Virus record (IMG/VR): IMGVR_UViG_3300030393_000004
Span: 1 to 50,097 of that record
Reading direction: 5' to 3' (one strand)
DNA from: a virus
Lineage: Duplodnaviria > Caudoviricetes
Length of the DNA stretch: 50,097 nucleotides
In this document: positions 772 through 49,071 of the stretch, piece by piece
Numbering within the stretch: the first letter of the stretch is position 1
Layout of the letters: each line of letters begins with the position of its first letter
Notes under the pieces: generated by a model
What the model saw: the letters and a program-made list of their open reading frames with translations, nothing else
The model's database searches: none
Told to the model about the DNA's origin: nothing
Position numbers and translations under genes: made by a program

Positions 772-808
772 AAAAAAGCCCCATCGTAGTGATAGGGCTA
801 GTTTAGCA
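772..808 (-). promoter_or_regulatory. Terminator-like hairpin directly before ATG with overlapping extended -10
   Basis: Minus strand TGC-TAAACT (808-800), stem GCCCTATC/GATGGGGC, then T6, then ATG. Confidence 0.55.
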
Positions 809-821
809 TTTACGCGACAGG

Positions 822-1694
822 CTAGAACTCCTCGTCGTCTTCACCGAAGTCAATGTCAGGGTCATTTGCTTCTGACATGTTGATTTGGTTGTCTAGGTCT
901 TTCTCGCTAACCTCCTCAAACTCTGCCTCTTCGACATCACTGTATGAGTTGATGCGGTCTTTGTGATGCTGTTTCATTTTAGATAGCTGAACTTTGTTGT
1001 TATCCCACAAGCCACTTGCTTCTAGTTTTTGACGGATATCACCACACACCTTATCAAGCGTTGATAGGTCGCCACACTCATCTAGATCAGCGCTAATGCT
1101 CTCAATATCAAACGCTGGTTTTTCTGGCGTAATATCTCGCGCCTGCGCTGGCTCGCTTTCTTTGATGCGGTCTGCTTCGTCGGGATCAACAATCTCGCTA
1201 ATACCAAAGGCCATGCGCGCCGCTTGAATGTAGGCTTTGTGACGTAACATGCGGCTAGGCCATTTATTCCAAACATCTGCACCATTGCCAGTCTTGCGAC
1301 ACTCAGCCAGATATTCAGTCACTGTTACTGGTCGAGTGCGGTTGGTTAGGTACATTCGGCAAGTGATGGCCGTTAGCTTGCCGTTTGCATCCATGTGATC
1401 ATCAAACTCAACACCATCAAACGTAGGCTGGCGGTTAACCATCTTGTACCAGCCGTCGATCATCACTGTAACTTGCAGTTTGCCACCAGATACGAAAGCG
1501 GCCATTTCTTTCACAAGCGGGTTTAGGTCGTACTTAGCCGCCACACCTGTCACGATAGCAAGCTCTGCATTGGTAGCTACTGAGCCATGTTGATTCTTGG
1601 CACTTACGATCATTCCGCTCAGTACTTCTTTGATTTCTTCTTGGCTTGCGCCTGTGTTTTGTGCCACTAGGGCTAGGGAGTTATTCGTGCTCAT
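822..1694 (-). CDS. bet: Phage recombination protein Bet/RecT-family ssDNA annealing protein
   Basis: LNPLVKE, IDGW, W..WPSRMLRHKAYIQAARMAFG motifs; acidic tail; near exonuclease. Confidence 0.9.
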   Translation of the reverse strand: MSTNNSLALVAQNTGASQEEIKEVLSGMIVSAKNQHGSVATNAELAIVTGVAAKYDLNPLVKEMAAFVSGGKLQVTVMIDGWYKMVNRQPTFDGVEFDDHMDANGKLTAITCRMYLTNRTRPVTVTEYLAECRKTGNGADVWNKWPSRMLRHKAYIQAARMAFGISEIVDPDEADRIKESEPAQARDITPEKPAFDIESISADLDECGDLSTLDKVCGDIRQKLEASGLWDNNKVQLSKMKQHHKDRINSYSDVEEAEFEEVSEKDLDNQINMSEANDPDIDFGEDDEEF

Positions 1695-1742
1695 GGTTTT
1701 GATTCCTGTTTTTATGCCCCACGGAATGCAGGGCGTATTGGT

Positions 1743-1928
1743 TTATTGTTCAGTTGTGATTGAAATGGTATGTGGTCCAATATTGATATTCTCTATACCG
1801 ACATCGTCCATCATGATGGCAGTTGTCATTGCAAAGCCTCCGATTATTGTTTCTACGTTTAAATGATCAAAACCTTCGACCTGCTGCGCTAGCTCCATCA
1901 ACTTCTGTGAAAATTCTTGGTGATTCAT
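1743..1928 (-). CDS. Small hypothetical protein
   Basis: 61-aa ORF with AAACAGGA RBS. Confidence 0.7.
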   Translation of the reverse strand: MNHQEFSQKLMELAQQVEGFDHLNVETIIGGFAMTTAIMMDDVGIENINIGPHTISITTEQ

Positions 1929-1945
1929 AATTATGTCCTGTTTAA

Positions 1946-1993
1946 TTATCTAATAATCTTGCTCAAATCGAGCTCTTCAATGTCTAGTCCGCT
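1946..1993 (-). pseudogene. Orphaned alternative 3' end of the exonuclease gene
   Basis: Translates SGLDIEELDLSKIIR*, matching current exonuclease end CGLDVEKLFIPEYLLRR*. Confidence 0.7.
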
Positions 1994-4834: not shown

Positions 4835-5158
4835 TTAGTCCTGTTTGGTTGTTAGATCTTCAAGCCTTTCTAGAGCTTTATTAATGTCGGCTGTCATCCT
4901 GAAAGTTGTACGGGTTTGAGGTGCCTTGTTTTTGCATATCGGCTCTATGAAATTAAAATCCCATAACCATTCAAAAACCCATTCCGACGGATTGTAAATT
5001 ACTTTCTTGAGTTCAATTCTATTCTTGTTTCTGTGAGTGAATGTTTTTATTCCCTCGCAAGTTCTACTTCCTTCATCAAATCTGAGTAAAATATCCTTAG
5101 CCAGTTCGACTCCTTCTTTAGTGCTCATTATCTTATTTTTGATGCTCTGATTCGACAT
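4835..5158 (-). CDS. Hypothetical protein (AT-rich insert)
   Basis: ORF from ATG 5158 (or 5128); its last codons CAG GAC TAA form the RBS of the next gene. Confidence 0.6.
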   Translation of the reverse strand: MSNQSIKNKIMSTKEGVELAKDILLRFDEGSRTCEGIKTFTHRNKNRIELKKVIYNPSEWVFEWLWDFNFIEPICKNKAPQTRTTFRMTADINKALERLEDLTTKQD

Positions 5159-5579
5159 AGTTGTTCGCCTTTTCAGTATCAAGTTTGATTTGATTTGAAT
5201 TTCTAACTGCAATCCCATCGGTAACTAGTGAAGATACAACTTCGTTTGCCACGTTAGCGCCACGTTGATTGCACATTGCACGAAGGGTTTGAAAGTACTT
5301 GCGATGCTTGATTACATTGAAAATCTGAGAAGTATAAACAAGCTCATAATCTCCTTCGTCTGCACATCTCAAGTCACGGCTTAATCGAATGTAAGTCTTG
5401 ATAAATGCAACCTTCGATTTAACCAAGAACTCTCGCTCAATCTCTTCGTGGTCTCTTACCAGCAAAACGCTTCTTATGATCTCCGCAAGCTCCTTGCCGT
5501 TCTTAGGGACTTCTAGACGACCATCCTCTGCCATTGAAATCATTTCGATTTGCTTCTTGTTGATGTTATTCGTGTACAT
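5133..5579 (-). CDS. Stand-alone paralog of the primase-helicase C-terminal (putative winged-helix) domain
   Basis: AAGGAG RBS; residues 82-127 align without gaps to the primase C-terminus (see findings). Confidence 0.7.
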   Translation of the reverse strand: MYTNNINKKQIEMISMAEDGRLEVPKNGKELAEIIRSVLLVRDHEEIEREFLVKSKVAFIKTYIRLSRDLRCADEGDYELVYTSQIFNVIKHRKYFQTLRAMCNQRGANVANEVVSSLVTDGIAVRNSNQIKLDTEKANNYVESEHQK

Positions 5580-5639
5580 ATGAACTCCTTCAGGTCAGTG
5601 AGAATAGATTAGCAGTATTTATCAGGAAAAACAACCATT

Positions 5640-9306: not shown

Positions 9307-9927
9307 ATGAGCAATATGTTTCTAAACCCGCTATCTCAAGACGATCTAGGCTACGAAGGCTTTTTTGACGGTCAGAACAAAACTATCCCTGACAACACTG
9401 AACTTGAATTTGTAGTGACTGACGGTTTCGTTGGTATCGAAGAAGGCAAGAGCCAACAGGTGTGCATGATTAATATTGCAATCACAACGCCAGGCGAGTT
9501 CTACGGCCAGAAATACCGTTACAACGCAAAGATCTACGACATGGACGCAAACAAGCGCGACCTAGCAATGCGCAATTTGGGTGTACTTGATGCTCAATCA
9601 GGCTTCCCAATGACTAATGGCCAACTACCGCTTACTACTGAAAACGTAAAAGACCATTGGGTGCAGAAAGCAAATGCTCGCGTTAAGTTTGGTTTGCTGA
9701 TTTCTACTGAAAACATGGACGGCTCTCCAATTGTCGACCAGTTCGGTGAGCCATCATCTAACCACATTAACTTCGTTCGAGGCTTCGCTTATGACCGTGC
9801 GAGGATGGTGCAGCAAGGGCAACAGCAGCAAAGCGAGCCAGCGCAACAGGCACAGCAACAGCAGCAAGCAACACAAAATGAAGATATTGCCGCAGGTCAC
9901 GCTGGCGACGACGACATCGATTTTTAA
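9307..9927 (+). CDS. Putative ssDNA-binding protein
   Basis: Beta-rich N-terminus, Q-rich linker, acidic DDDIDF tail like SSB tails; replication context. Confidence 0.6.
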   Translation: MSNMFLNPLSQDDLGYEGFFDGQNKTIPDNTELEFVVTDGFVGIEEGKSQQVCMINIAITTPGEFYGQKYRYNAKIYDMDANKRDLAMRNLGVLDAQSGFPMTNGQLPLTTENVKDHWVQKANARVKFGLLISTENMDGSPIVDQFGEPSSNHINFVRGFAYDRARMVQQGQQQQSEPAQQAQQQQQATQNEDIAAGHAGDDDIDF

Positions 9928-9951
9928 TCTTTAGGCAAACCAATTAACAAT

Positions 9952-9970
9952 GCCGCTTTCGAGCGGCTTT
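9952..9970 (+). terminator. Hairpin terminator
   Basis: GCCGCT-TTCG-AGCGGC-TTT. Confidence 0.6.
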
Positions 9971-10032
9971 AAATTAAGCTTTTACTTTTGATTGTTCTGT
10001 GCGACAATATCATAAAAAGTAAGGGCTCTAAC

Positions 10033-10854
10033 ATGAATTACAGAAAGCTGCACAACTCAATCATAAACAATGCAATAACAAGATCTAAAGTGAAGGATCA
10101 ATATAAAGAAAATCACCATATAATTCCAAAGTCGATGGGAGGGACTGACAAAAAAGAAAATATAGTCCAATTAACAGCAAGAGAGCACTTCATTGTTCAT
10201 TGGCTGCTAAAGAAAATCCATCAAAACAAGTCTATGACCTATGCATTTTTCTCAATGACAAAGCTTGGAAATGAAAGCCAGCAGAGATACACAAGCCATA
10301 GCTTTAAATACGCAAGGGAATCTATGTCGAAAATGATGTCCGAACGAGTTGGCGATAAACACCCAATGCATGGCATTACTGGTGATGACAACCCAAACAC
10401 AGGATCAAAGCGAACAGAGGAATCCAAAAAGAAAATGTCAATAGCTATGACTGACAACAGAGTCGGCTCAAAAAACCACAAATCGAAGCCTGTTAAGAAT
10501 TTAGATACTGGTGATGTTTTTGAGTCAGTAAGGCAAGCTCAGTTAAAAACTACAGGTAACGTTTCTTACGCAATAAGAAGTGGCGGCACTGCTGGTGGTC
10601 ATAGGTATTCATACGTTAATGATGGAGAGCAATTATCAGAAAAACTAAGGCTTAAAGGATACATGAAGGGTGATAGTCATATTAATTCAGTGTCAATAAG
10701 AAACATAACAACAGGTGAAGAGTTCAGCACAATTAAAGCTGCTGGAGAATCAATTAGCAAAACAGGAACAGCGATAAGTTGGTCTATCAGAAACAACAAA
10801 GAGATAGGCGGCTTTAAGTTCGAAAGGATCAACAATGAAAAAAATGAAGCCTAG
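10033..10854 (+). CDS. HNH homing endonuclease with NUMOD-like C-terminal repeats
   Basis: HHIIPKSMGG....N...LTAREH...H; repeated V.N..TG..F.S...A modules; AT-rich; overlaps helicase start. Confidence 0.85.
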   Translation: MNYRKLHNSIINNAITRSKVKDQYKENHHIIPKSMGGTDKKENIVQLTAREHFIVHWLLKKIHQNKSMTYAFFSMTKLGNESQQRYTSHSFKYARESMSKMMSERVGDKHPMHGITGDDNPNTGSKRTEESKKKMSIAMTDNRVGSKNHKSKPVKNLDTGDVFESVRQAQLKTTGNVSYAIRSGGTAGGHRYSYVNDGEQLSEKLRLKGYMKGDSHINSVSIRNITTGEEFSTIKAAGESISKTGTAISWSIRNNKEIGGFKFERINNEKNEA

Positions 10855-12823
10855 ACCGTATCAGCAAGATGCAATAGACGCGGTGATTATGCATGTTAAA
10901 AAAAGGCTATCACCATGCCTAATAGAATGCGCCACTGGTAGTGGTAAATCACTAATAGTTGCAGAGCTTGCGGAGTTTTTCTCAAAGGTAGCACCAACCA
11001 AGCGCGTTCTTTGCATTGCTCCTTCAAAGGAGCTTGTTGAACAAAATTTTGAGCGTTACACGGTAGATTATGGAAATCCAGCATCAATCTACTGTGCCAG
11101 TGCTGGTAAGAAGTGCCTGCGATCTCAGGTTATCTTTGCATCACCGCAAAGCGCTTTGAAGTCGATTGATAAAATCGCGCACATGGGTATCAGTGCAATT
11201 ATTATTGATGAGGCTCACGGAATTACGCCAAGTTTATTGAAGATAATTGACGGGGTTCTCAATTATGAAATAGCAGGACGTAAAGCCAATGAGAAGTGCC
11301 GAATTGTCGGAATGACCGCTACACCCTACCGAATGAACACTGGCTACATCTACGCGATTGACGCAACAGAAGAAGAAGAGATCCACCACGACGAAACCAA
11401 AGCGGTTGATCCGTTCTTTTCAAAGTTGCTTTATCGAATCACAGCGGGTGAATTGGTTGAAGAGGGTTTCTTGACTAAGCCAGAGATTGGCGACAGTGAA
11501 GACAACTACGACACAAGCGGCCTAGAACTTAACCGAATGGGTAAGTTTGACGACAAACAAGTCGCTGAGGTTTTTCAGAAATCCACCAAGACAGAAAAGA
11601 TAGTTAATGAGATCGCACAACGCTCACAAGATAAGATGGGCGTTATGATCTTTGCTTCAACAATTAGCCACGCTGAAGAGATTGCAGGGCTATTGCCTCA
11701 AGGTCAATCTGAGGTGGTAACAGGCAAAACAAAAAGAAAAGATCGAGAAGCAATTATAAATAATTTCAAGGCAAAGCAATTCAAATTCTTGGTTAATGTT
11801 TCAGTTTTAACCACAGGATTTGACTGTAGTCACGTCGATCTTGTTGCTGTTCTTAGGGCCACAGAATCAGCAATGCTATTCCAACAGATTATTGGTCGAG
11901 GCCTTCGCTTAGATGAAAATAAGCCGTTTGTTTCAATTCTTGACTACGCAGAAAACATCGAGCGCCACGAACTTCAAGAGGATATCTTCACACCACAAAT
12001 CAAAGCCAAGCCAAAGCCAGGTGAGGGCGTAGAAATCGAAGTTACTTGCCCTGCTTGTGGTGCGCACTCAGTTAAGAAAAAGCGCAACGAAATGACCTAC
12101 GCAGGTTTGGCGCATGATGCTTTCGGTAACTTCTTGATTAGTGGCACTGAGAAGGCGATTGCTTGGGAGGATGGCGAGCCCGTATTGTGGGAAGGTGAAA
12201 CGCTTACGATGCAAGTGCTTGATCCAACCACTATGGATGAATTTGGTGATTGCGGATTTAAAGAAATACCGGTGCCAGCGCATTACTCGCGACGATGCAG
12301 CAATCCAGAGGCGTATGTTTTGAGTGGCAAGCCTATTCGATGCGAACACCGTTACAGCGCTAAGGTTTGCCCTGACTGCCATGCTGACAATGACATTGCA
12401 GCGCGCCATTGCGTTGAATGTAAAGTGCGACTAGTTGACCCAAACGAGAAACTAACTGAAAAGGCAGGTCAAGCTGGAATTATTGCCATGGGTGAAACGC
12501 GAACAGTGCACTGCTTAAGCGCCAAGTACGAGCCTTATGTTGGCGGTGGTGGTAAGCACTCAATAAAAGCCACCTACAACACGGAAATAGGCGCAATCGT
12601 TGCTTGGCATACTTCACGTCAACACTGGATCTTCAACCGACTAGCGGAAGCTAATGGCATTGTGCGCAGTCAGATTGATGATGCGATCGACGCTCAATAT
12701 TCACAGTGTGCGTTTTGGACGGTGGCACCGCATCAGATCAAAGTTAAGAAAAGCGAAGGCCAAAACGGCTACGCTAAATTTGAAGTTAAACAAGTTGAGT
12801 TTTTAGAGGAGCAGGTGGGATGA
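10835..12823 (+). CDS. SF2 DEAH-box DNA helicase (RadD/YejH-like) with C-terminal Zn fingers
   Basis: RPYQ, ATGSGKS, IIDEAH, TATP, TTGFD, QIIGRGLR; CxxC pairs. Confidence 0.92.
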   Translation: MKKMKPRPYQQDAIDAVIMHVKKRLSPCLIECATGSGKSLIVAELAEFFSKVAPTKRVLCIAPSKELVEQNFERYTVDYGNPASIYCASAGKKCLRSQVIFASPQSALKSIDKIAHMGISAIIIDEAHGITPSLLKIIDGVLNYEIAGRKANEKCRIVGMTATPYRMNTGYIYAIDATEEEEIHHDETKAVDPFFSKLLYRITAGELVEEGFLTKPEIGDSEDNYDTSGLELNRMGKFDDKQVAEVFQKSTKTEKIVNEIAQRSQDKMGVMIFASTISHAEEIAGLLPQGQSEVVTGKTKRKDREAIINNFKAKQFKFLVNVSVLTTGFDCSHVDLVAVLRATESAMLFQQIIGRGLRLDENKPFVSILDYAENIERHELQEDIFTPQIKAKPKPGEGVEIEVTCPACGAHSVKKKRNEMTYAGLAHDAFGNFLISGTEKAIAWEDGEPVLWEGETLTMQVLDPTTMDEFGDCGFKEIPVPAHYSRRCSNPEAYVLSGKPIRCEHRYSAKVCPDCHADNDIAARHCVECKVRLVDPNEKLTEKAGQAGIIAMGETRTVHCLSAKYEPYVGGGGKHSIKATYNTEIGAIVAWHTSRQHWIFNRLAEANGIVRSQIDDAIDAQYSQCAFWTVAPHQIKVKKSEGQNGYAKFEVKQVEFLEEQVG

Positions 12824-13011
12824 AATACTTACTAATAATGCAATTAATTATTGTCGGTTCCCAAAAAGGTGGTGGCTCACTGGACACTGTTATTTTAGAT
12901 AGCCATGAGCAGTGTGAAAAAGTGAAAGCCGTCTTTATGTACAACATGAAGGACGATCGGCCATATGGAAGAATTTTCCGAAAAGCTGAATGCGTGGAGC
13001 TCTCACAATGA
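12820..13011 (+). CDS. Small hypothetical protein
   Basis: ATGA overlap with helicase stop. Confidence 0.65.
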   Translation: MKYLLIMQLIIVGSQKGGGSLDTVILDSHEQCEKVKAVFMYNMKDDRPYGRIFRKAECVELSQ

Positions 13012-13136
13012 ACCTAACAGAAGATCAAATTAACGACTTAATTGAAAAGTGGCATGAAGACAAAGAAACCACGCTTGATCTTCATGAGTACCTTGGCATG
13101 ACGTGGGAAGAATACACAAAGTGGGTGCAATCATGA
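13008..13136 (+). CDS. 42-aa acidic hypothetical protein (not in ORF track)
   Basis: MNLTEDQINDLIEKWHEDKETTLDLHEYLGMTWEEYTKWVQS; GGAG RBS; ATGA overlaps on both sides. Confidence 0.7.
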   Translation: MNLTEDQINDLIEKWHEDKETTLDLHEYLGMTWEEYTKWVQS

Positions 13137-13555
13137 ACCTAGCCCAAATCACCAAACACAAGATCCCCATTTACGGGGATTTGGACTTTCGCGGCAAGTG
13201 CCCAAGCGAAGCAAGCGAACAAGTTAGCTTTTTGTGCCTTTTGCGCAAAGAATTTCCACATCTTGCAGAAGTAACAGCGCACATCCGAAACGAAGGGCAA
13301 AGAACGAAACTTCAAGCTTTTAGACAAAAGCAAGAGGGCTTAAAAAAAGGCGCGAGTGATTTATTTATACCATGCAATCCGCCAATTCTAATTGAACTAA
13401 AAAAGCAGGATCACACAGCATCACACACCACAACCGATCAAGTGAAGTATCTTTTCAGAGCTCGAAAGCTCGGCGCGTTTGGTTGCTACGCTTTAGGCGC
13501 TGCGGGCGCAATGGAGGCGGTCAGGGCATGGCATACAAAGTACGGCAAAAAATAG
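13133..13555 (+). CDS. VRR-NUC (PD-(D/E)XK) nuclease / resolvase
   Basis: E..EQ, HIRNEG.R, GLKKGASDL, IELKK, Q..YL. Confidence 0.85.
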   Translation: MNLAQITKHKIPIYGDLDFRGKCPSEASEQVSFLCLLRKEFPHLAEVTAHIRNEGQRTKLQAFRQKQEGLKKGASDLFIPCNPPILIELKKQDHTASHTTTDQVKYLFRARKLGAFGCYALGAAGAMEAVRAWHTKYGKK

Positions 13556-13806
13556 GCCAATTACCAGAACACCACTACAAAGCGGATCGAGAGTGGATAA
13601 ATAAAATGATGGGTTATTTGCAGTTTGACCCAGTTGACGACAGCAAAAACGAACGCGGCAAGGTGTGCCTAGCTTACAGTAAAGCTTTTCATGATGCTGT
13701 CAGCCTTGAGCCAGTCACACATAAGAAAACCAATGCAGGACGCTTCGAGGCTAATACCAGGTTGAGAAAGTTTATAGAGAAGCGGTTTCGTGTTTTTAAT
13801 CAATAG
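13528..13806 (+). CDS. Hypothetical protein
   Basis: ATG 13528, overlaps upstream gene, followed by terminator. Confidence 0.65.
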   Translation: MAYKVRQKIGQLPEHHYKADREWINKMMGYLQFDPVDDSKNERGKVCLAYSKAFHDAVSLEPVTHKKTNAGRFEANTRLRKFIEKRFRVFNQ

Positions 13807-13815
13807 CCCACAACT

Positions 13816-13838
13816 AGCCCCACACCGGGGCTTTTTCT
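13816..13838 (+). terminator. Intrinsic terminator
   Basis: AGCCCC/GGGGCT plus T-run. Confidence 0.8.
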
Positions 13839-13878
13839 TGTCTGTCACATAAAAAGTAATAAATATTAAAGAAAAGTA

Positions 13879-13907
13879 TTCACATTTATTTAGTTTGTGT
13901 GTATATT
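13879..13907 (+). promoter_or_regulatory. Sigma70-like early promoter
   Basis: TTCACA-N17-TATATT with AT-rich UP region. Confidence 0.6.
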
Positions 13908-13939
13908 GGGTTTATTGAAGTTAAACAGGAATAACAACC

Positions 13940-14116
13940 ATGCAAATAACCATACCCATTAAAGTAAACAGCACCTCTCACAAGTGGCTAACGGAGGGAG
14001 TAAAACGTTTCGGCTCAGATTACAGGCATGTGTGGAAAGGTAGTTACTACAAAATCGTGGACTGGAAGCCATCGGTACGCGGAGAGTTTAGTTTAGTTTT
14101 GGAGAGTGTATTGTGA
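13940..14116 (+). CDS. 58-aa hypothetical protein (not in ORF track)
   Basis: MQITIPIKVNS...LVLESVL; AAACAGGA RBS; GTGA overlap with next gene. Confidence 0.7.
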   Translation: MQITIPIKVNSTSHKWLTEGVKRFGSDYRHVWKGSYYKIVDWKPSVRGEFSLVLESVL

Positions 14117-14334
14117 GGATAATCGATGCTGCTAAAAAGCTATTTTTTAAAGAAGAGTCTAAAAAGATATTTGGACATAAAGCCCACGGTGAGAGTTGTT
14201 ATGTTTGCGGGAAGCCAATGCACACAGAGCATGGTGTGACAATGGTAGGTAGTGGCGAGAAAATGCATTCTGATTGCTGGCCTGATTTCTTTACGAAGAG
14301 AGTTGAGAAAATAGCTGAGGAGAACAAACAATGA
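14113..14334 (+). CDS. Small putative Zn-finger protein
   Basis: CYVC...HSDC. Confidence 0.65.
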   Translation: MRIIDAAKKLFFKEESKKIFGHKAHGESCYVCGKPMHTEHGVTMVGSGEKMHSDCWPDFFTKRVEKIAEENKQ

Positions 14335-14720
14335 AACCCTCAACCATAGCCAAAAACCTTGGCGCAAAGACAGCAAGCGCCGTAGCAGCATCATACGGCA
14401 TGTTACCGCAGCAGTTGCACGAGATATGCCGTAAAGACGCTAAACGCTTTGAGCGCATGGTCAGGACGCACGTACTTAGTGTTGAGCTTAACGTTTCGTG
14501 CCAGCATCTTGAGTTCTTGATGAAGCAAGTCGCTAGCAACATGGAAGGCAATAACGCGGCAGATTATTTCTTGAATGATCCAGAAGCCAAGAAAGAGTTA
14601 ACACGCGCTTACGTGGTGGATTTTCGTGTGCGCATGAAGGATATGTGCCAAAAGATTCTTGATAGCGAAATGGTGCAAGAGTCGGTTGGTGATTTGGTTG
14701 GTGAGAAGTTGGGTAAATAG
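14331..14720 (+). CDS. Hypothetical protein
   Basis: GAGGAG RBS, ATGA overlap. Confidence 0.75.
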   Translation: MKPSTIAKNLGAKTASAVAASYGMLPQQLHEICRKDAKRFERMVRTHVLSVELNVSCQHLEFLMKQVASNMEGNNAADYFLNDPEAKKELTRAYVVDFRVRMKDMCQKILDSEMVQESVGDLVGEKLGK

Positions 14721-14729
14721 GACGGGAAA

Positions 14730-15308
14730 ATGAAAGTAGATATTTACGACACAGGCAAAAAGTACGATGTTATTTATGCCGATCCACCATGGCAATTTAA
14801 CAATAAGAAAACTGGCGGCTCCATGAAGTCTGGCAGCGAGCATCAATACAAGTCTGTCATGTCAATTGACGACTTAAAGGAGATGCCAATACCAGAAATT
14901 TCCAGTGACAATTGCTTGCTTGTCATGTGGTGGGTTGGCTCAATGCCACAAGAAGCTATCGACTTGGTTAACTCTTGGGGATTCACCATCAAGAACATGA
15001 ACGGCTTTGTGTGGAATAAGATCACCCAAAACAACAAGCCATACTTTGGCATGGGTTTTTATACCAGAGCTGGTAGTGAGTCATGTGTGATTGCCACTAA
15101 AGGCAAGTTCAAGCCAGTTAGCCGATCTGTTCGAGCTGTGTTCTGTGCTGAGTCTCAAATTCAATTTGAAGCAAAGGTAACAAAGCACTCAGAAAAACCG
15201 CACCAAGTAAGAGATCTAATCGTCGACTTGGCTGGCGATGTGCCACGCATTGAGCTTTTCGCGCGCAAGACTGCGGACGGTTGGGATTGTTTTGGGAATG
15301 AGGTGTAG
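14730..15308 (+). CDS. MT-A70-family adenine methyltransferase
   Basis: YDVIYADPPW, LVMWW, WGF, FVWNK, HSEKP, RIELFAR...GWDCFGNE. Confidence 0.92.
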   Translation: MKVDIYDTGKKYDVIYADPPWQFNNKKTGGSMKSGSEHQYKSVMSIDDLKEMPIPEISSDNCLLVMWWVGSMPQEAIDLVNSWGFTIKNMNGFVWNKITQNNKPYFGMGFYTRAGSESCVIATKGKFKPVSRSVRAVFCAESQIQFEAKVTKHSEKPHQVRDLIVDLAGDVPRIELFARKTADGWDCFGNEV

Positions 15309-15380
15309 ATGATGTCCCACTACGAATGCAAAGAGTGTCAAAAACCTTATCAATATTGTGAATGTAAACAGGAAAGTAAA

Positions 15381-15818: not shown

Positions 15819-15825
15819 TTTTGAC

Positions 15826-33845: not shown

Positions 33846-33847
33846 AC

Positions 33848-34094: not shown

Positions 34095-34821
34095 TGTGCT
34101 TCTCCAATCTTGCGAATGTTACTGTTTCTGCGTAAGAGCGATCTTGATTATGAGTGTCAGTAGCTCCAATAAGGATAGCTCCGCGCTTATAGTTGTTGCT
34201 TTCAGCTATGACAGTTGCCTCTGCTGCATTCATACTATTAAGCGCAAGATAGGACATTATTAGAGACAATCCATAAATCTCAGAGCCTTTGCTGATCCGT
34301 ATTAAGTTTGGTGTTGCACCATCCCTGTCAGATATATGGTTAAAGATATCGCTCCATCTATCTTCGTCTTTTTTTGCGTGAGACTTACTAAAGTGCTGCT
34401 CTTCGTCATACTCGACAAATAAGCCCAAACCCTCAAGGTAAAAATCAACCCTATACCCACACACTGGAAATTGCCTAACTACATTAATGTGAGGCAAGAA
34501 CTCACAAAGCATCTTATAAAATATATCTTCGCTCCTAGTCCTCTTACTCCCAACCACTACGACATCAGAACCAAAGCTGTCCAGTATTATGGCTTTTTTC
34601 ACCCCAGATAAGGATCTGAATTCGGACAGCAGACTAAATCCGTCAAGATTCATCGTATATTGCTTGTAGACTCTACCCCTTGCGTTCTTGAACTCACCCA
34701 TCTCAAACAAATGGCTGTATTCCATATCTGATAATAATAGCCTTTTTACCTGGCGCATAATATCCTTGTGCTGGATATTGTAAATATCACTAATTTCTCT
34801 CGTGCTAATCTCAACTCTCAT
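34084..34821 (-). CDS. Rha-domain protein fused to DUF559/Vsr-like endonuclease domain
   Basis: STREI......HKDIMR...F....F.NARGR.Y..Y.MN.DGFSLL; RQFPVCGYRVDFY....VEYDE.QH. Confidence 0.8.
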   Translation of the reverse strand: MRVEISTREISDIYNIQHKDIMRQVKRLLLSDMEYSHLFEMGEFKNARGRVYKQYTMNLDGFSLLSEFRSLSGVKKAIILDSFGSDVVVVGSKRTRSEDIFYKMLCEFLPHINVVRQFPVCGYRVDFYLEGLGLFVEYDEEQHFSKSHAKKDEDRWSDIFNHISDRDGATPNLIRISKGSEIYGLSLIMSYLALNSMNAAEATVIAESNNYKRGAILIGATDTHNQDRSYAETVTFARLEKHSEN

Positions 34822-34846
34822 TTTACGACCCGTTGGTTTACCAGTG

Positions 34847-34880
34847 AATTAATATTAGCTCAATATTAATTTCCGATCAA
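34847..34880 (-). promoter_or_regulatory. Promoter with overlapping palindromic operator
   Basis: TTGATC-N17-TAATAT; AATTAATATT-N5-AATATTAATT at 34847-34871. Confidence 0.55.
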
Positions 34881-34888
34881 GAGAAAAT

Positions 34889-34912
34889 AAAAAAGAGGCC
34901 GAAGCCCCTTTA
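34889..34912 (-). terminator. Intrinsic terminator after tape measure gene
   Basis: AGGGGC-TTCG-GCCTCT plus T-run on minus strand. Confidence 0.75.
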
Positions 34913-34952
34913 TTTTAATTTTGGTTTGACTCAGCCAGTGGCTGTGTGAAAT

Positions 34953-36515
34953 TTAATTACCAGTGTTAATCAGATTAATGCGTGGTGATTGCATCGGACT
35001 TGATACCGTTGCGCCATTCTGACCAGTCACGTTAATATCAAACGTTTCTCTATTCTCGTTAATAGATCGGCTTATTCGCTCTTGTGGTGTGACCACGTTG
35101 TTTGTGTCTATGGTCATTGAGCGACTTACTTCTGTGTCGGTATCGTCACCAAAGCCAAAGAAGTCTTTAGCTGCATTAACTTTCCCCATCACTGCGCCAA
35201 CTGTTGATTGATACATATCAGCAATGCCGCCGAACAGGTTGCTAAAGTAATTGGTAACACCATCCCACTGAGATTTTACAAATTCCATTGGCGACCAATC
35301 AAACATTGATTTAACCATCTGTACGCCAATATTGAAAGTCGTGGTTATGTCGCCCCATAGCGAACTAAACCAATCGCTTATTGACCCCCAGTTGTCGTAT
35401 ATGTATTTAACTGCGAAACCTAACCCAACAATGGCAGCGGTAATACCTGCGATTACCCAAACGATCGGGTTGGCTGCCATTACTAAGTTGAATACTGTCA
35501 CTAATCCAATCACAACTTTAAGAGCTACTGATAAACCAGTAAAAGACGCTACTGCTATTCCTATCCACTTAGCATATGTGATAAACTTCTCGAAATTAGC
35601 GCCAAGGTTGAGAATAAAAGTAGAAGCCTGATCCGCATGTTCTGAAAAACTTCCAATCTTATCTGCTAGGACTTCAAAGAAATCATCAAGACCAATCTGG
35701 ATCACCTCTTTATTAGCAACTAAGAAGTCGTTAAATTTTCCAATCAGTGGTGATAAGTGCAATCCAATTAGGCCGCTTATCTCTTTTCCGATGCTTCCAA
35801 ATATTGTTTCTGTTTTGCTCAGCTCGTTAACGTATTTAGATGCACCCTCTCTTCCTTTCTCAGTAAAGAAGTTCAGCTTTCTGTATTCATCAATGACACC
35901 ACCAAGACCTTTTTCTTGCTCTCGTAAAAGACCTACGATTTTATTACCTTCCGATCCAAATAAAATATCTGCGGCCGCACTAGCCTCAGTGGCTGACTCC
36001 ATAGCTAGCAAAGTTTCAGTTATCTTTTTAAACTGGTCTTCTGGAGATAGTTTTTTGATGTCATTGAATTGAAGCCCCATGATCCCAAGGCTTTCAGTAA
36101 CCTTTGTGATCTCTTCTAGCCCAGCACTCTCCCCGAAGGCATTCCGCATCTCCTCCGCGAGATCGAGAACATTCTCAGCTCCAAGCCCTGTACCTTTTAA
36201 GGCATGAGTGATCGACTCAACTGTTTCTGCTGATAACTCTTGCGCCTTGATTAGCTTTTGGGTTTCTACGGTTTGTTTGTTGATCGCTGTTGAGCCAGCT
36301 AGCGCGGCGGTTGTGATAACGCCTAGGCCGATAACTGCTTTTTTACCTGCGTCAAACAATGAGGATGTGACTCGCTCGGTAGCTGCATCGACTTTTCTAA
36401 GTCCTGCCTCTGCCGATTCGGTCATTTTGCTTATAGACGCACTCATTTTTCTAACAGGGCGGGTCATGCGATCCACGCCCTTAAAAACGGTACTTATGGT
36501 ATATTTCGAGGCCAT
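34953..36515 (-). CDS. Tail tape measure protein
   Basis: F.GVDRMTRP, helical; hydrophobic segment, ANPI, W/F periodic repeats; follows chaperone. Confidence 0.88.
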   Translation of the reverse strand: MASKYTISTVFKGVDRMTRPVRKMSASISKMTESAEAGLRKVDAATERVTSSLFDAGKKAVIGLGVITTAALAGSTAINKQTVETQKLIKAQELSAETVESITHALKGTGLGAENVLDLAEEMRNAFGESAGLEEITKVTESLGIMGLQFNDIKKLSPEDQFKKITETLLAMESATEASAAADILFGSEGNKIVGLLREQEKGLGGVIDEYRKLNFFTEKGREGASKYVNELSKTETIFGSIGKEISGLIGLHLSPLIGKFNDFLVANKEVIQIGLDDFFEVLADKIGSFSEHADQASTFILNLGANFEKFITYAKWIGIAVASFTGLSVALKVVIGLVTVFNLVMAANPIVWVIAGITAAIVGLGFAVKYIYDNWGSISDWFSSLWGDITTTFNIGVQMVKSMFDWSPMEFVKSQWDGVTNYFSNLFGGIADMYQSTVGAVMGKVNAAKDFFGFGDDTDTEVSRSMTIDTNNVVTPQERISRSINENRETFDINVTGQNGATVSSPMQSPRINLINTGN

Positions 36516-36765
36516 TACTTATTCCTTTCTTTCTGAAATTGCATCAGTTCAGGCACAAGTAAATCGTAGTAGAAACGCAGCTCTTGAATGGTTATTTCTG
36601 TTGGCCTTGGCGCGTTTGCAAAGTCTCTAGCTACTTGTGCATACATAGTAGTGTATATGTTAGCACGAGTGTTGGGATCTATGCGTTTACCAAAGTGCAA
36701 GCGATTAGGGAGTCGCTGCAACTCCCCACCGCTTACGACTCGAACCGTTGTTAAGCCAAAAAAAG
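36515..36765 (-). CDS. C-terminal part of frameshifted tail assembly chaperone (gpGT-like)
   Basis: -1 frame open from the T7 run at 36758-36764 to stop 36515; no RBS of its own. Confidence 0.75.
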
Positions 36766-37167
36766 CAGCGCGAACTCTTTAAGGATTTTTAAGTCAGAGT
36801 TAGGCAGTCGGTTGATCTGAACGTATGGAACGCCAACCATGCCAGCAATAAACATCATGAGCTTTTTCATGTCTTGGTTTTTGCCGCCTTTATCCATCAT
36901 TTCCCAAGCCGTGCCACCTGGCTCTGTAATGGTGATGGTTTTCTCATCGTCGCTGATTGGCTTTTTAAGCGTTAGAACGTACGAATCACCATCAACGATA
37001 GCGCGACCAGTCATGATTGGCTTAGCAAGCGTGCGAAGCTTGTCTTTGAAGTCTTTCGCGTCATCTTCAAGCATTGAATCAACATCGGTGTCGATGTCCA
37101 TTGCATCTAGAAGGGTGATTAGTTCAGCCTCTGCGGCCTCTTGTGGGATAGAGATTTTTTTAGTCAT
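36751..37167 (-). CDS. Tail assembly chaperone (gpG-like)
   Basis: ACAGGAC RBS, ATG 37167; L.KP...ITITEP, I..L...D motifs; ends CTT TTT TTG GCT TAA. Confidence 0.8.
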   Translation of the reverse strand: MTKKISIPQEAAEAELITLLDAMDIDTDVDSMLEDDAKDFKDKLRTLAKPIMTGRAIVDGDSYVLTLKKPISDDEKTITITEPGGTAWEMMDKGGKNQDMKKLMMFIAGMVGVPYVQINRLPNSDLKILKEFALLFLA

Positions 37168-37172
37168 TGGAA

Positions 37173-37367
37173 TTAGTCCTGTGGTGAAATTAGTTTTGAA
37201 AGTTCTTTTGCGATGTCTTGAGTTGCAGTTCGAACTGGACATTTAGTTGCAGCTCCAGCCACACGCGGTGCGCCATTCAAAGCTTCAAGAGCGTTGGACA
37301 TCGCATAAATTAATTCGATTTTTTCTTGGTGCGGTACGTTTTGTTTTTTGCATTCTTTATTACACAT
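37173..37367 (-). CDS. Hypothetical protein inserted before the chaperone
   Basis: ATG 37367; flanked by ACAGGACTAA copies. Confidence 0.65.
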   Translation of the reverse strand: MCNKECKKQNVPHQEKIELIYAMSNALEALNGAPRVAGAATKCPVRTATQDIAKELSKLISPQD

Positions 37368-37375
37368 AATATTTA

Positions 37376-37442
37376 GTCCTGTTAAGGCTCCCCACCACAA
37401 TGGCTAAAGGTACAGGACAGACCGGGGAGCACGTTAAGTATA
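37376..37442 (-). promoter_or_regulatory. -10 box plus branched structured leader RNA
   Basis: TATACT 37442-37437; GCTCCCC/GGGGAGC stem enclosing two small hairpins; loop complementary to RBS. Confidence 0.5.
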
Positions 37443-37466
37443 ACCACTTCAAAATAATTAAACAAA

Positions 37467-37499
37467 TGACTTGATTTTAACCGATTCAGTGGCTAAGAT
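37467..37499 (+). promoter_or_regulatory. Island promoter
   Basis: TTGATT-N17-TAAGAT. Confidence 0.6.
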
Positions 37500-37527
37500 T
37501 AATTCAACTTAAACAGGAAGGAATATT

Positions 37528-37743
37528 ATGAAATTTACCGACACACCCACAACCACGCTTGATGAGTTGCTTGAGTTTACGCATGGCAATAAATCACATG
37601 CGGCCACTAAGATTGGCATTACTCGCACAACCCTGCGTAATTACATCGCTAAGAAAGACAAGGTTTTACTGGTGAAAATTGATGGCAAGCTAGTGCCATT
37701 TGTTGCTGACCGCCGTCAAGGTGCGCATAAGAAGGCTAGTTGA
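37528..37743 (+). CDS. NinH/Fis-like HTH protein
   Basis: LL..THGNKSHAA..IGITRTTLRNY then beta hairpin. Confidence 0.75.
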   Translation: MKFTDTPTTTLDELLEFTHGNKSHAATKIGITRTTLRNYIAKKDKVLLVKIDGKLVPFVADRRQGAHKKAS

Positions 37744-46292: not shown

Positions 46293-46313
46293 AAATATTT
46301 TGCTCCAGATGTT

Positions 46314-46349
46314 AAAAAAGGTGCGATTAACTAAGTTTATCACACCTTT
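46314..46349 (-). terminator. Terminator hairpin with extended -10 in its 5' arm
   Basis: AAAGGTGTGATAAAC/GTTAATCGCACCTTT plus T-run; TGA-TAAACT at 46342-46334. Confidence 0.6.
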
Positions 46350-46359
46350 GTTGGGTTGG

Positions 46360-48318
46360 TTATTGTTCGTAGAATACCGGTAAGCCGTTGTTGCCTGTTT
46401 TGCAGTATTCGAAAAATTCAATCCAATTCACAATGTCACGGCCTGATTGTCGAATCATGATATCCCAAGCGAGAATGTCGAGTGTAGCGTTATTGTACAC
46501 AAGCAAATCCCAGTTCTCGTTGTCGCCTTTGCGATCCCATTTAAAACCTTGAATAGCACCTGTTGCTGGATCTTTAACTGGAACTTTAGTTTCAGCTTTA
46601 AATTCCATCATTTGCTCACGCGTCATGTCGATCGGGAAGTTAATGCAGTATTCGTGCTGCATTTCTGGCTCTGACCACTTACGATTGAGTGATGAGTACC
46701 ATCTATCCTTGTACATATTTGTGTTCAAATTCGCCACTGGTACACCCAGTTTTGTCTCTGTCATCTTGAACTCAGAGAATGTAGACCCCTTTTGCGCACC
46801 AGGTAAACCCTTAATTGGGATCACTCCGTCAGTGTCGTAACAAAATTCTAGTACTTCATGTTGAGCGTAACCAGAATCTATTGCTGTTAGTTGGATTCTG
46901 TATTTCTTGCCATCGTCTGCAATATAGACCTTGTTGTAGATCATATCCTTCAACGTTGTCCACGGTTCAGACTGTAGGTTGTGGCAATCGCCATAAAGCC
47001 TAAATGAATCAACCAAGAAAGAACGGTTTCTATCAGCCCATCCGTACACAGCAACAGCTAGGTTATTTTTATGCACATCGACTGCGCAAGTCAGTACTAA
47101 GATCTCACTGCCACAATGTTTGATTGCGAAGTTATTAGGAACTTCACCAAGTCGGTAGGCTGTGCGCCTGTGTGAAGCAACGCCGCTGTATTTAAGTCTG
47201 TCTGTCAGTACTTCAAACGGTTCGCCAAGGACATTGTTGTAAAAGGTTCTAAGCTTGTCGTTATCTCTTGATTCGTTCTTTACAACGTCCCAACACTCAA
47301 ACCAGTCTCTTACACATGCCTCAAAGCTCTTCATGCCAACTGGTGAATATAGTGCGTTAATGAAATAGCTTCGTCTTGTTTTGTCTTCACACTCTGCAGT
47401 TGCTCGCCACTCACCAGCGTTAAGCATTTTTGTTTTGTCTGCGTTCTTGTGTGATTCGCCACAGTACTTGCAAATGTATCGAACAGAATCAATATCAAGT
47501 CGGCCATTGTCGTGCTCGAAAACAAGGCCATAAACTTCGCCAGTTTCTTTATTGGTCTTGTTCCACTCTAGTGTCTGCATCATTTCGCATTTCTTGCATG
47601 GAACGAAGTACTTACGTTGATCGCCAAGCTTGTAGTTGTCATCAATAATTGAGTTGCCCTTTTCCAAAGGCGTAGACAACATGCACACTTTTTTAGATTG
47701 GGTATAACCTGCGGTACGGTCGATAGCTAGTTTTACTGGAGAACCGTCACGGCCTACCGATTTTTTATAACCATCAACCTCATCCAAGAATAAGTACTGA
47801 ATAGAGAATGAACGCAGCTTACCCGGCGAGTTACTACCAAAGAAAAGGCCATAACCACCACCGAACCATGATAAGCGGTCTTTTGTCTTACCTGTTTTGC
47901 GCCCATTAGTTTCTGCGTCGTTCGCTTGAATCAGGTGATCAAGGTTTGAATGCTGAAGCATGGGACCAATATTCTGTTCTAGTCTCAGCTTGGCCACGGT
48001 ATCGTCAACCGTCAAGATCATAGCTGGCGCATTCTTCACGTGGGCTATACAGTACAGCAGGCCGGATTCGACCAAAGCCACGGTTGCTCCTACTTGTGCA
48101 CTTTTTTTAACGGCTATCGTTCTGATTGGAGAAGACAAGGAAAGGCAGTCAACAACCTCACGCCAGAACGGAGTAACATCAAACGAGTAATAGCCGGGCA
48201 TTGGCGACACACTGGCGGGTAAATACCGTGTCGATTCTGTGAACTCGGATACAGATAAAACGTTGTGCGTATCCTTTAGGGCGCTGAACTGATCAATTAG
48301 CCATTCGCTATCATTCAT
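46360..48318 (-). CDS. terL: Terminase large subunit (lambda GpA family)
   Basis: TPFWRE, KSAQVGAT, LFLDEVDGY, STP, GDQRKYFVPC..C, ALYSP, FYNNVLGEP, AVDV, IDSG, NE..D. Confidence 0.95.
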   Translation of the reverse strand: MNDSEWLIDQFSALKDTHNVLSVSEFTESTRYLPASVSPMPGYYSFDVTPFWREVVDCLSLSSPIRTIAVKKSAQVGATVALVESGLLYCIAHVKNAPAMILTVDDTVAKLRLEQNIGPMLQHSNLDHLIQANDAETNGRKTGKTKDRLSWFGGGYGLFFGSNSPGKLRSFSIQYLFLDEVDGYKKSVGRDGSPVKLAIDRTAGYTQSKKVCMLSTPLEKGNSIIDDNYKLGDQRKYFVPCKKCEMMQTLEWNKTNKETGEVYGLVFEHDNGRLDIDSVRYICKYCGESHKNADKTKMLNAGEWRATAECEDKTRRSYFINALYSPVGMKSFEACVRDWFECWDVVKNESRDNDKLRTFYNNVLGEPFEVLTDRLKYSGVASHRRTAYRLGEVPNNFAIKHCGSEILVLTCAVDVHKNNLAVAVYGWADRNRSFLVDSFRLYGDCHNLQSEPWTTLKDMIYNKVYIADDGKKYRIQLTAIDSGYAQHEVLEFCYDTDGVIPIKGLPGAQKGSTFSEFKMTETKLGVPVANLNTNMYKDRWYSSLNRKWSEPEMQHEYCINFPIDMTREQMMEFKAETKVPVKDPATGAIQGFKWDRKGDNENWDLLVYNNATLDILAWDIMIRQSGRDIVNWIEFFEYCKTGNNGLPVFYEQ

Positions 48319-49028
48319 TATTCCGCTCCAATATTTCTAACAATTTGCGCTTTGGCGTTTTGAATAGGCTTGCTGATCTCACCACGCACTGTCTTTGTTG
48401 CTTCTTCTATGGTATCGCCAGATTCGCAATGCGCGTAGATCTTTGTTGCAATCGTAACGGCAGAGTCAACCAGTAGCCTTGAATTCATTTCCTCAAGAAA
48501 ACCAAACACACTTTTTTTCATTGCCTCGCGCTTTACTACTTCACCGGTCTTTTCTTCAACCTTGATTTCGCGCTCGACAATTTCAACTTGAGTTTTTTTG
48601 GCTTGTAACCATCCACGGTAAGATTCATCTGATCCGAAATATGCCACCAACTCATTTAGAGTTAAATTACCATGGTCTGAGATATCGACTTGCTCAACGG
48701 TTTTGTTTTGAGTGGCGGTTATTTTTGGTCTTGGCTTTTCGCTTTGAGTTCCAGTTCCGGAGCTTCGTCTAGACTTAGCGAGTTTACTTTCACTCTGAGA
48801 TACTGGTGTGGTTGCCAAATGGCTAGTTCGTTCTTCTGCTGGTTTTAATTGATTTGAAATATCAGCGCCTTTGCTTTGCATGAACGCATGCATAACAGGA
48901 TGATTGATATCAATCTTGGTGCCGATCTTAGCTTCTTGGCAATGCTCTTTTACATATCGAGTGATATATTGTCTCGACACTCCGCATGCTGCGCTTATTT
49001 TTGATGCTGGATATAGTCGTTGTTCCAT
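48318..49028 (-). CDS. terS: Terminase small subunit
   Basis: N-terminal HTH (ISAACGVSRQYIT), coiled C-terminus with GEVV.R; coupled to terL; ATG 49028 favoured. Confidence 0.8.
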   Translation of the reverse strand: MEQRLYPASKISAACGVSRQYITRYVKEHCQEAKIGTKIDINHPVMHAFMQSKGADISNQLKPAEERTSHLATTPVSQSESKLAKSRRSSGTGTQSEKPRPKITATQNKTVEQVDISDHGNLTLNELVAYFGSDESYRGWLQAKKTQVEIVEREIKVEEKTGEVVKREAMKKSVFGFLEEMNSRLLVDSAVTIATKIYAHCESGDTIEEATKTVRGEISKPIQNAKAQIVRNIGAE

Positions 49029-49036
49029 AGAAAAGA

Positions 49037-49071
49037 CCTGAGTGTTATTTCCCATAATGTTAACACTCAGG
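49037..49071 (-). promoter_or_regulatory. RBS-occluding hairpin with embedded extended -10
   Basis: CCTGAGTGTTA/TAACACTCAGG perfect 11-bp inverted repeat; TGT-TAACAT at 49065-49057. Confidence 0.65.

Follow-up and report, generated by a model that had tools for sequence, protein, structure and literature searches.

Results

A Vibrio myovirus with accessory slots among its structural genes

We analyzed a 50,097-base viral sequence, IMG/VR record IMGVR_UViG_3300030393_000004 (the window, meaning this whole stretch), and describe short conserved cassettes ahead of its minus-strand structural genes, in which a -10 element lies in or beside a hairpin. The window covers all or nearly all of the ~50-kb genome of a marine Vibrio myovirus. 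Its ends carry the identical 12 bases GCAGATTTGAAC (positions 1-12 and 50086-50097), so that the assembly is circularly closed or terminally duplicated and represents ~50,085 bp. Scans of 58 window proteins against PHROGs and 39 against Pfam place a packaging and head part on the minus strand (HNH nuclease, terS, terL, adaptor, portal, protease, decoration and capsid genes), followed by neck, sheath, tube, chaperone, tape measure, Mu-like baseplate and fibre genes; a plus-strand block (9307-19363) carries replication and other genes. Accessory genes are embedded in the structural cluster or adjoin it (29475-30800, 34084-34821, 1992-2747, 9988-10854 and 49099-49935). Those of the window are PAPS-reductase-like, Rha-like with a DUF559-like part, two HNH endonucleases and homing-endonuclease-like, and in relatives the same slots hold other genes.

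Megablast matched the window to 27 records, all of them Vibrio phage, with a top identity of ~91%. With the gp46-like protein as query, tblastn returned 39 records (19 at an identity of at least 97%, 8 at 75-79% and 12 below 60%), and the same query retrieved 5 IMG/VR relatives. Our comparison set comprises 16 Vibrio phage genomes and these 5, giving 21 relatives, or 22 sequences with the window. According to their annotation, the relatives share the backbone of the window, with fixed slots filled by variable genes: T5orf172- or HNH-type nucleases, DNA methylases, a phosphoesterase, Rha/antirepressor genes and small open reading frames (ORFs).

Conserved -10 elements ahead of structural genes

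An initial annotation of the window had proposed a recurring module at seven minus-strand sites, each combining a -10 box, mostly of the extended type and without a convincing -35, with a hairpin that hides the ribosome-binding site or resembles a terminator. We refer to these sites as s1 (terS), s2 (adaptor gene), s3 (chaperone region), s4 (gpN region), s5 (gp46-like baseplate gene), s6 (fibre region) and s7 (neck/tail-completion gene). All seven -10 boxes and repeats lie where they were proposed and have the proposed sequences. Across the 21 relatives, the recurring arrangement places a -10 that lacks a conserved -35 within or next to a hairpin, before structural blocks and after variable slots. 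The seven sites are not one uniform module, however, because s3 has a -35 and no gating, the s4 stem is no better than shuffles and s2 never occludes.

The -10 elements are the most conserved bases among the 21 relatives and are often flanked by unrelated DNA. Five of the seven are properly spaced extended -10 elements, with TG one base upstream of TAnnnT: TGTTAACAT at s1 (49057-49065), TGATAAACT at s2 (46334-46342), TGCTACAAT at s4 (33526-33534), TGATATACT at s6 (22403-22411) and TGCTAAACT at s7 (800-808). We searched for the motif TGNTANNNT in the 120 nt upstream of orthologous start codons, an anchoring that avoids circularity. Upstream of the adaptor gene it is present in 16/16 relatives, and its end lies 35-41 nt before the start. 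At least three unrelated contexts carry it there: the loop of a terminator, which has three apical variants; TGTTATTAT; and, in L008, L131, L132 and L133, TGATATACT within the 3' end of a T5orf172-like insert. The DNA-circulation gene has it in 14/20 relatives; five exceptions (L006, L130, L133, L134 and L136) carry an extra small ORF in between together with a repeated ribosome site, and the sixth (L127) has unrelated sequence directly upstream. For the neck gene the count is 10/12. At two intra-operon controls, the motif was found within 120 nt of the start in 0/16 relatives (terL) and 0/20 (orthologue of 21638-21982).

Conservation of the longer cores is similarly local. The s5 core TAGTGTATACTTA is found in 22/22 sequences and the s4 core CATGCTACAAT in 21/22; the latter abuts unrelated DNA on its upstream side in L131 and on its downstream side in L126 and L128. 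At s7, ATGCTAAACTAGCCC is shared by 10/12 relatives covering the site and is preceded by eleven different, unrelated 5' flanks. The DNA upstream of terS falls into five non-homologous types, each with a -10 hexamer 23-30 nt before the ATG (TGTTAACAT or TGTTAATAT; TGTTACAAT; TGATATAAT; TGATATAGT; TG-TATAAT, by type), and the TG is correctly spaced in 4/5. We take the conserved -10 cassettes to be, with fairly high probability, real promoters of the sigma-70 extended -10 kind.

Hairpins at the packaging and head genes

At s1, an 11-bp perfect inverted repeat (CCTGAGTGTTA/TAACACTCAGG, 49061-49071 / 49037-49047, minus strand) encloses the extended -10, and the Shine-Dalgarno (SD) sequence of terS lies in its 3' arm. 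The gene starts at the conserved ATG 49028, and not at the ATG 49055 in the loop, as had been supposed. The stem is followed by a tail that is U-rich in the window and in L004 and less so in L001, and its fold scores a z of -2.06 against shuffles in the window and -4.99 in L004.

The terS leaders provide the strongest comparative argument for the hairpins. An inverted repeat flanks the -10 in 5/5 unrelated leaders, with fold z of -1.7 to -6.6; the L006 type is the weaker one (-1.73 in L006, -2.08 in L136). In three types, those of the window, L002 and L134, the repeat pairs the ribosome site or the AUG, and in the L002 and L134 types the predicted shift in SD accessibility between long and short leaders resembles those at s1, s5, s6 and s7.

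Just upstream of s1 lie four GTAAAC hexamers (49072-49102, minus strand). The terS repeats in L002, L007, L134 and L006 are GTTTCC, or the palindromic GTTTCCGGAAAC twice, or GTTTAC/GTAAAC, and they vary together with the terS sequence type. The window's hexamers are candidate protein-binding repeats (for the small terminase or a regulator) or packaging-related ones. Further upstream, the SD of the HNH gene (ATG 49935) lies within a small hairpin, CCTCTT/GAAGAGG (49941-49962). A TGTTAGTAT box ~90 nt upstream of that gene (50025-50033) would leave this hairpin inside the transcript.

The hairpin of s2 is an intrinsic terminator after terL (46314-46349, minus strand; stem 46339-46349 / 46317-46327, then a T-run; fold z -4.12), with the extended -10 in its stem and loop. 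The adaptor gene starts at ATG 46292 and has a GGAG ribosome site outside the hairpin. In L006, L007, L008, L131-L133, L135 and L137, a T5orf172-like or other gene is inserted after terL; in these genomes a consensus extended -10 (TGTTATAAT or TGATATAAT) directly follows the terL stop and precedes an apparently structured leader of ~80 nt.

Hairpins at the baseplate, fibre and neck genes

The gp46-like baseplate gene (ATG 27546) is preceded by a terminator (27607-27626) and then by the s5 repeat, 10 bp and perfect (CCCTTAGTGT/ACACTAAGGG, 27582-27591 / 27553-27562, minus strand), whose 3' arm contains the SD. The -10, TATACT (27577-27582), sits at the junction of the 5' arm and the loop. Fold z is -3.27 in the window, and seven hairpin pairs are kept in 22/22 sequences.

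At s6, the repeat is 9 bp and perfect (GCCCTGATT/AATCAGGGC, 22412-22420 / 22379-22387, minus strand; fold z -3.04), again with the SD in the 3' arm (ATG 22369) and with the -10 in the loop. Six pairs are kept among 15 unique sequences, with G-C changed to G-U in 5 and in 1. Within the loop, only the 5' part, which holds the -10, is invariant, and the 3' part varies; at s5, too, the loop is constant at the -10 and varies elsewhere among relatives. Because their loops are 19 (s5) and 24 nt (s6) long and no U-tract follows, these two hairpins are not terminators.

The s6 site had been thought to adjoin a plus-strand island, which was not borne out: by homology to annotated relatives, its upstream neighbours are small genes on the same minus strand (23072-23260, 22848-23072 and ~22527-22619). 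Picking the longest ORFs assigns the wrong strand in this region (22527-23560). The plus-strand island begins at 23391, after a near-consensus promoter, TTGACA-17-AATAAT (23333-23361).

The extended -10 of s7 abuts a terminator (AGCCCTATC/GATGGGGCT and a T-run, 791-799 / 777-785, minus strand; fold z -5.46), and the neck/tail-completion gene (ATG 771) follows immediately downstream of the 772-808 cassette.

One further repeat covers a ribosome site in the fibre region: GCTATTCCT/AGGAATAGC, perfect over 9 bp (21592-21619, minus strand), pairs the SD of a 730-aa fibre gene (ATG 21590). No -10 lies within it, and the initial annotation did not list it.

Stem conservation and predicted gating

Five of the proposed hairpins, at s1, s2, s5, s6 and s7 (z from -2.1 at s1 through -3.0, -3.3 and -4.1 at s6, s5 and s2 to -5.5 at s7), beat shuffles and are kept in relatives; the s4 stem and the s3 leader do not beat shuffles. 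Including the window, L002, L134 and L007 types of the terS leader, z ranges from -2.1 to -6.6 across these sites. Stem pairs are unbroken at s5 (22 sequences), s6 (15 unique) and s7 (11), and the core stems are likewise intact at s2 (8 unique) and s1 (3). RNAalifold also predicted peripheral pairs at s1 and s2, of which a few are disrupted, each time in one or two sequences. Most stem changes at s1, s2, s5, s6 and s7 turn G-C or A-U into G-U, a tolerance that fits RNA of the late strand better than a symmetric DNA site. By the usual marks of intrinsic terminators (a G+C-rich stem, a short loop and a U-tract), s2, s7 and 27607-27626 qualify.

A stem pairs the SD, the start codon or both at s1, s5, s6 and s7, weakly at s4, and not at s2 or s3. 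Assuming that transcription starts 7 nt after the -10 hexamer, we calculated the probability that the SD is unpaired on long and on short leaders. It rises from 0.00 to 0.73 at s1, 0.50 at s5, 0.47 at s6 and 0.56 at s7, and same-strand genes lie upstream of all four. At these four sites the predicted start lies inside the hairpin; at s2, s3 and s4 the probability shifts little or in the opposite direction. Such release follows by construction for any promoter placed in a hairpin, and the numbers indicate that the geometry is right without demonstrating its use.

The proposed shared motifs are present as well. The string AACACT(C/A/G)AGG occurs exactly as described at three ribosome-binding sites, together with its partner in the s1 repeat. 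ACCAAAAC follows the -10 at two sites, confirmed as s4 and s5, and occurs 8 times in the window where 2.7 are expected (0/100 shuffles reach 8). Among perfect repeats with long loops, 4/6 place the 3' arm on a minus-strand SD (s1, s5, s6 and 21592-21619). We also built a composite detector requiring a stem, a TGn -10 whose predicted start falls inside the hairpin, and a start codon. In its strict form it found 2 matches in the window (50 kb), the same number as in 923 kb of unrelated viral contigs, a background drawn from 116 viral-contig loci matching a 14-mer scan with the s5 core. It is in these two combinations that the window stands out.

Sites s3 and s4

Site s3 lies in a divergent control region. 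Its -10 (TATACT, 37437-37442, minus strand), said to lack a convincing -35, in fact has TTGTTT at 17-bp spacing (37460-37465) and no TGn. Back to back with it is a plus-strand promoter, TTGATT-17-TAAGAT (37471-37499), of an HTH_8/NinH-like gene. The region is near-invariant: the -35 and -10 columns are identical in 8 aligned relatives, and, in a search that demanded the block itself, the -10 block TTATACTTAAC is found in 20/22 sequences and GTGGTTATACTTAAC in 19/22, window included. A structured leader of 63 nt follows before the chaperone-region gene (37368-37430, minus strand), with P1 (GCTCCCC/GGGGAGC), a small helix P2, and P3. Its 15 pairs are unbroken in 19 sequences, one pair reading UA in 12, UG in 6 and GC in 1. 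The SD CAGGAC (37376-37381) has its complement in the loop GUCCUG (37413-37418), and a pseudoknot or an anti-SD interaction is possible. The fold is no better than shuffles (z -0.11), and a search of Rfam gave no match in the window at gathering score and none in 37340-37460 at E of at most 1. By its sequence, s3 is a conventional promoter that includes a -35, and a conserved structured leader lies downstream of it.

At s4, a hairpin (AGCCCTC/GAGGGCT, 33545-33563, minus strand; two variants among relatives) lies upstream of the extended -10, and the leader before ATG 33498 includes ACCAAAAC and AACACTGAGG. The weak stem that had been read as occluding does not beat shuffles (z -0.50), and s4 is, judged from its layout, a terminator-coupled promoter without significant ribosome-site occlusion.

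Directly downstream, a 17-bp direct repeat, GAGGGCTAACCGATGGC (33314-33330 and 33494-33510), stands on either side of a 58-aa ORF (33322-33498) and comprises the ribosome site and start of the DNA-circulation gene. L006, L130, L133, L134 and L136 have other small ORFs in this slot, with the ribosome site repeated. The arrangement looks like gene insertion through a duplicated ribosome-site cassette.

Promoters of accessory genes

Good -35 hexamers (TTGACA, TTGATT, TTGATC) distinguish the promoters of accessory genes and islands from the structural cassettes. An early-type promoter, TTGATT-17-TATTGT (28458-28486, minus strand), precedes the accessory gene 27788-28426 and is a paralogue of the plus-strand promoter at 37471-37499. 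TTGATC-17-TAATAT (34852-34880, minus strand) stands before the Rha-like gene 34084-34821 (Pfam Phage_pRha) and downstream of a terminator (34892-34911), and TTGACA lies upstream of the PAPS-reductase-like gene. These two promoter classes would fit the separate control of islands that was proposed earlier. The extended -10 type is not confined to structural genes; among relatives it also precedes nuclease-like inserts after terL.

The ~30-nt promoter block beginning AAAATCAAGTCA (-35 TTGATT) occurs twice in inverted orientation (28458-28490 and 37465-37500), for the plus-strand HTH_8 gene and the minus-strand gene 27788-28426, and most relatives have both copies. In the minus-strand replication/recombination block, TGCTAATCT (5606-5614) ends 26 nt before the ATG of gene 5133-5579, and its core, TGCTAA, matches that of s7 and s4.

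Discussion

A model for restarting the structural genes

The picture that we favor is as follows. Minus-strand packaging, head and tail genes are interrupted at fixed slots by variable accessory genes, such as HNH and T5orf172-type nucleases, methylases, Rha-like and PAPS-reductase-like genes and small ORFs. Short conserved cassettes adjoin these slots on the downstream side, and their core would be a host sigma-70-type promoter relying on an extended -10 (TGn-TAnnnT), with no conserved -35. Two kinds of hairpin are associated with it: putative intrinsic terminators that stop incoming transcripts (s2, s7 and those upstream of s4 and s5), and stems whose 3' arm is the SD of the next gene (s1, s5 and s6, and s7 in this genome). 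With the -10 in the 5' arm or loop, the predicted start would fall ~7 nt downstream, inside the hairpin. Transcripts from this internal start would lack the 5' arm and hence would neither terminate nor hide the ribosome site, and read-through transcripts would be stopped or poorly translated.

We give a probability of roughly 0.55 to this reading, in which extended -10 promoters after accessory slots are coupled to terminators, to SD-sequestering stems or to both. The feature itself is real and conserved: its sequences, the stability of its hairpins and the pairing kept in relatives are directly observed. The mechanism is plausible; promoter activity, start sites, termination, differential translation and timing are what we infer from these sequences.

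Several results weigh against it. Three scans relied on a gene list that still included wrong-strand ORFs in 22434-23497: the count of TGNTANNNT, which occurs 129 times in the window and 9 times at 15-80 nt before a same-strand start, near the 6.4 expected by chance; an SD-accessibility scan in fixed windows, which put no site other than s5 and s7 near the bottom of 75 genes; and a count of minimum-free-energy pairs crossing a pseudo-start site, which failed to single out the sites. Matches to AACACTNAGG with at most one mismatch (13 against 11.1 expected) and perfect inverted repeats (stem of at least 9, loop 3-30; 10, where 20 Markov shuffles average 5.45) are also near chance. Two-hexamer sites of the sigma-70 type number 24 where shuffles give 36.4 and are not enriched, nor are matches to the relaxed composite detector (4 in the window against 50 in the 923-kb background). 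On such counts the window by itself lends little statistical support; the weight lies with the 21 relatives.

Individual sites depart from the pattern as well. At s2 the ribosome site is not occluded, and the probability that the SD is unpaired falls from 0.59 on the long to 0.35 on the short leader; s3 shows no gating (0.57 to 0.84), and s4 only weak occlusion (z -0.5; 0.07 to 0.19). The TG of s5 is one base closer than in a standard extended -10, and in mid-clade relatives its occlusion is weak (z -1.3). Five of 11 unique s7 sequences, window included among the 11, have a separate GGAG ribosome site after the terminator (L001, L003, L004, L007 and L131), and those of L003 and L001, when folded, show no occlusion. 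The L007-type terS leader shows none either. An analysis of motifs and covariation in related phages, proposed in the initial annotation as a check, upheld conservation of the -10 and of the stems and gave few double-sided compensatory changes, most changes being to G-U: one pair each at s1 (among 3 sequences) and s3, and two apical pairs at s2 (8 unique sequences). Relatives of one sequence type are, moreover, not independent, and a search for RNA sequencing runs made with positions 27450-37449 listed none.

Alternative explanations

The closest competitor is plain insulation, in which the hairpins are ordinary terminators or stability elements, the promoters are adjacent owing to short intergenic space, and ribosome-site pairing is incidental. 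We regard it as rather unlikely. It draws on the hairpins of s2 and s7 and those upstream of s4 and s5, which are canonical terminators, on the s7 variants of L003 and L001 just described, and on the adaptor promoter, which persists in contexts without any hairpin; terminator-promoter coupling is moreover reported as common in bacteria in the bioRxiv preprint by Fletcher et al. (10.64898/2026.08.19.745784). However, the stems of s1, s5 and s6 have long loops (13-24 nt), those of s5 and s6 have no U-tracts, and the 3' arms of all three coincide with an SD, as in four of the six long-loop perfect repeats. Three non-homologous terS leaders retain pairing of the ribosome site or AUG, and the ribosome-site stem of s5 is already preceded by a separate terminator.

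The initial annotation took the sites to imply an unidentified late activator. True late promoters of this sort, which like the late promoters of T4 or the Mor/C-dependent ones of Mu would require an activator or sigma-like factor from the phage, are in our estimation distinctly unlikely. The absence of a conserved -35, and -10 hexamers that often end in ACT (TAAACT, TATACT), speak for them, and there are small DNA-binding candidates: the conserved HTH_8/NinH-like protein at 37528-37743 (Pfam) and the 129-aa product of 14331-14720, a PHROG "transcriptional regulator" with an all-helical model and weak matches to helix-turn-helix (HTH)-like folds. On the other hand, a TGn extended -10 can suffice for sigma-70 alone, with no -35 needed; correctly spaced TGn stands at five of the seven sites, and the variants include the consensus TGATATAAT. 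Mosaic breakpoints lie directly 5' of the -10, leaving no conserved upstream activator site. Sigma, Mor/C and gp55-like families were unmatched among the 58 proteins compared with PHROGs and the 39 compared with Pfam, and the same promoter type precedes the nuclease-like inserts after terL in relatives. The cassette promoters thus look activator-independent.

The product of 14331-14720 belongs to a protein family confined to this phage group, in which it is conserved. Its AlphaFold model (predicted local distance difference test score 79) has no Foldseek match in PDB at E of at most 0.001, the weak top rows being HTH proteins, and it is probably a helical HTH protein. It has no PDB sequence match and its Atlas scores are below 0.85; we do not claim it as an activator.

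It is improbable that the repeats act as DNA, as operators of a phage regulator or as small-terminase sites, although terS invites the idea: the hexamers GTAAAC and GTTTCC and two copies of the palindromic GTTTCCGGAAAC flank its -10 and change with terS type, and a AATTAATATT palindrome overlaps the promoter of the Rha-like gene. Yet the arms of s1, s5, s6 and s7 tolerate changes to G-U, which read C-A on the other strand, no motif is common to the arms of s5, s6 and s7, and the 3' arms coincide with ribosome sites. Least probable is an absence of promoter function, the cassettes being recombination linkers or RNA-processing sites with -10-like boxes from AT-rich loops, since, even though the conserved cassettes coincide with mosaic breakpoints and such motifs are common by chance in the window, TG and TAnnnT keep a fixed distance to the start codon through non-homologous replacements (five terS types, at least three adaptor contexts) and are missing at the intra-operon controls.

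Relation to known systems

The T4 hairpins invoked as a precedent by the initial annotation are real. In the sections of PMC3014915 and PMC2988022 drawn on here, hairpins bypassed by an internal late promoter are described for T4 e, soc, I-TevI/II/III and segB and for mobE of Aeh1: the stem hides the SD on transcripts from upstream, and a promoter in the DNA of the 5' strand or loop yields translated transcripts without that strand. Sites s1, s5, s6 and s7 have this geometry by prediction. They differ in that their promoters are sigma-70-like (TGn-TAnnnT), whereas those of T4 belong to the gp55-dependent (gp55/gp33) late class TATAAATA; in that the putatively gated units are structural blocks after accessory slots, as against single late genes in early regions; and in that some hairpins double as terminators. 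The logic itself is already known from T4, and it is promoter class, systematic slot placement and hairpins doubling as terminators that set the present case apart. T4 free-standing homing-endonuclease genes also embed promoters for downstream essential genes (PMC2988022, in the part cited), which TGATATACT within the T5orf172-like insert of L008, L131, L132 and L133 resembles, in these relatives and not in the window.

Promoter-coupled terminators, as defined in the portion of Fletcher et al. (10.64898/2026.08.19.745784) cited here, consist of a terminator hairpin and T-tract immediately upstream of a same-strand -10, between tandem units; termination lies within ~35 bp upstream of the same-strand start, with the -10 just after the T-tract. 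By sequence, s4 and the s5 variant of L002, L008 and L130 fit this geometry, unlike s1, s2 and s7, where the -10 lies upstream of or inside the hairpin and the predicted start falls within the terminator. In the literature searched, we found no prior description of such modules in VP16T/VP16C, H188 or the Nahant vibriophages, and the words promoter, terminator and transcription are all absent from the MAG7 paper.

Late promoters of phage Mu are activated by Mor/C. Like Mu, these phages have a tail module with gp46-, gp48- and DNA-circulation-like genes (by the annotation of relatives) and sites with a -10 and a poor -35; unlike Mu, they have no conserved upstream dyad and do have a TGn extended -10.

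Implications

Tentatively, and with rather less confidence than in the gated-promoter reading itself, we suggest that the cassettes are portable "plug-in sockets" that unite a terminator, a promoter lacking a -35 and an anti-SD lock within 40-60 nt. They may insulate the structural operon from whatever accessory or anti-defence gene occupies the slot and, being near-identical across diverged phages, may double as homologous-recombination linkers for gene swaps, with the repeat around the 58-aa ORF as an insertion footprint. If so, regulation and mosaicism would be two faces of one element.

The conserved and concrete start-site predictions are useful for annotating these genomes, and the compact terminator-promoter units are possible genetic parts. 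If confirmed, our reading would mean that the promoter-in-hairpin trick of T4 is not peculiar to T4-like phages, and that a family of marine Vibrio myoviruses uses it systematically, with host-type promoters, at the boundaries of accessory slots. It would also explain how optional nuclease, methylase and other genes can sit inside the head-tail cluster without disturbing structural expression.

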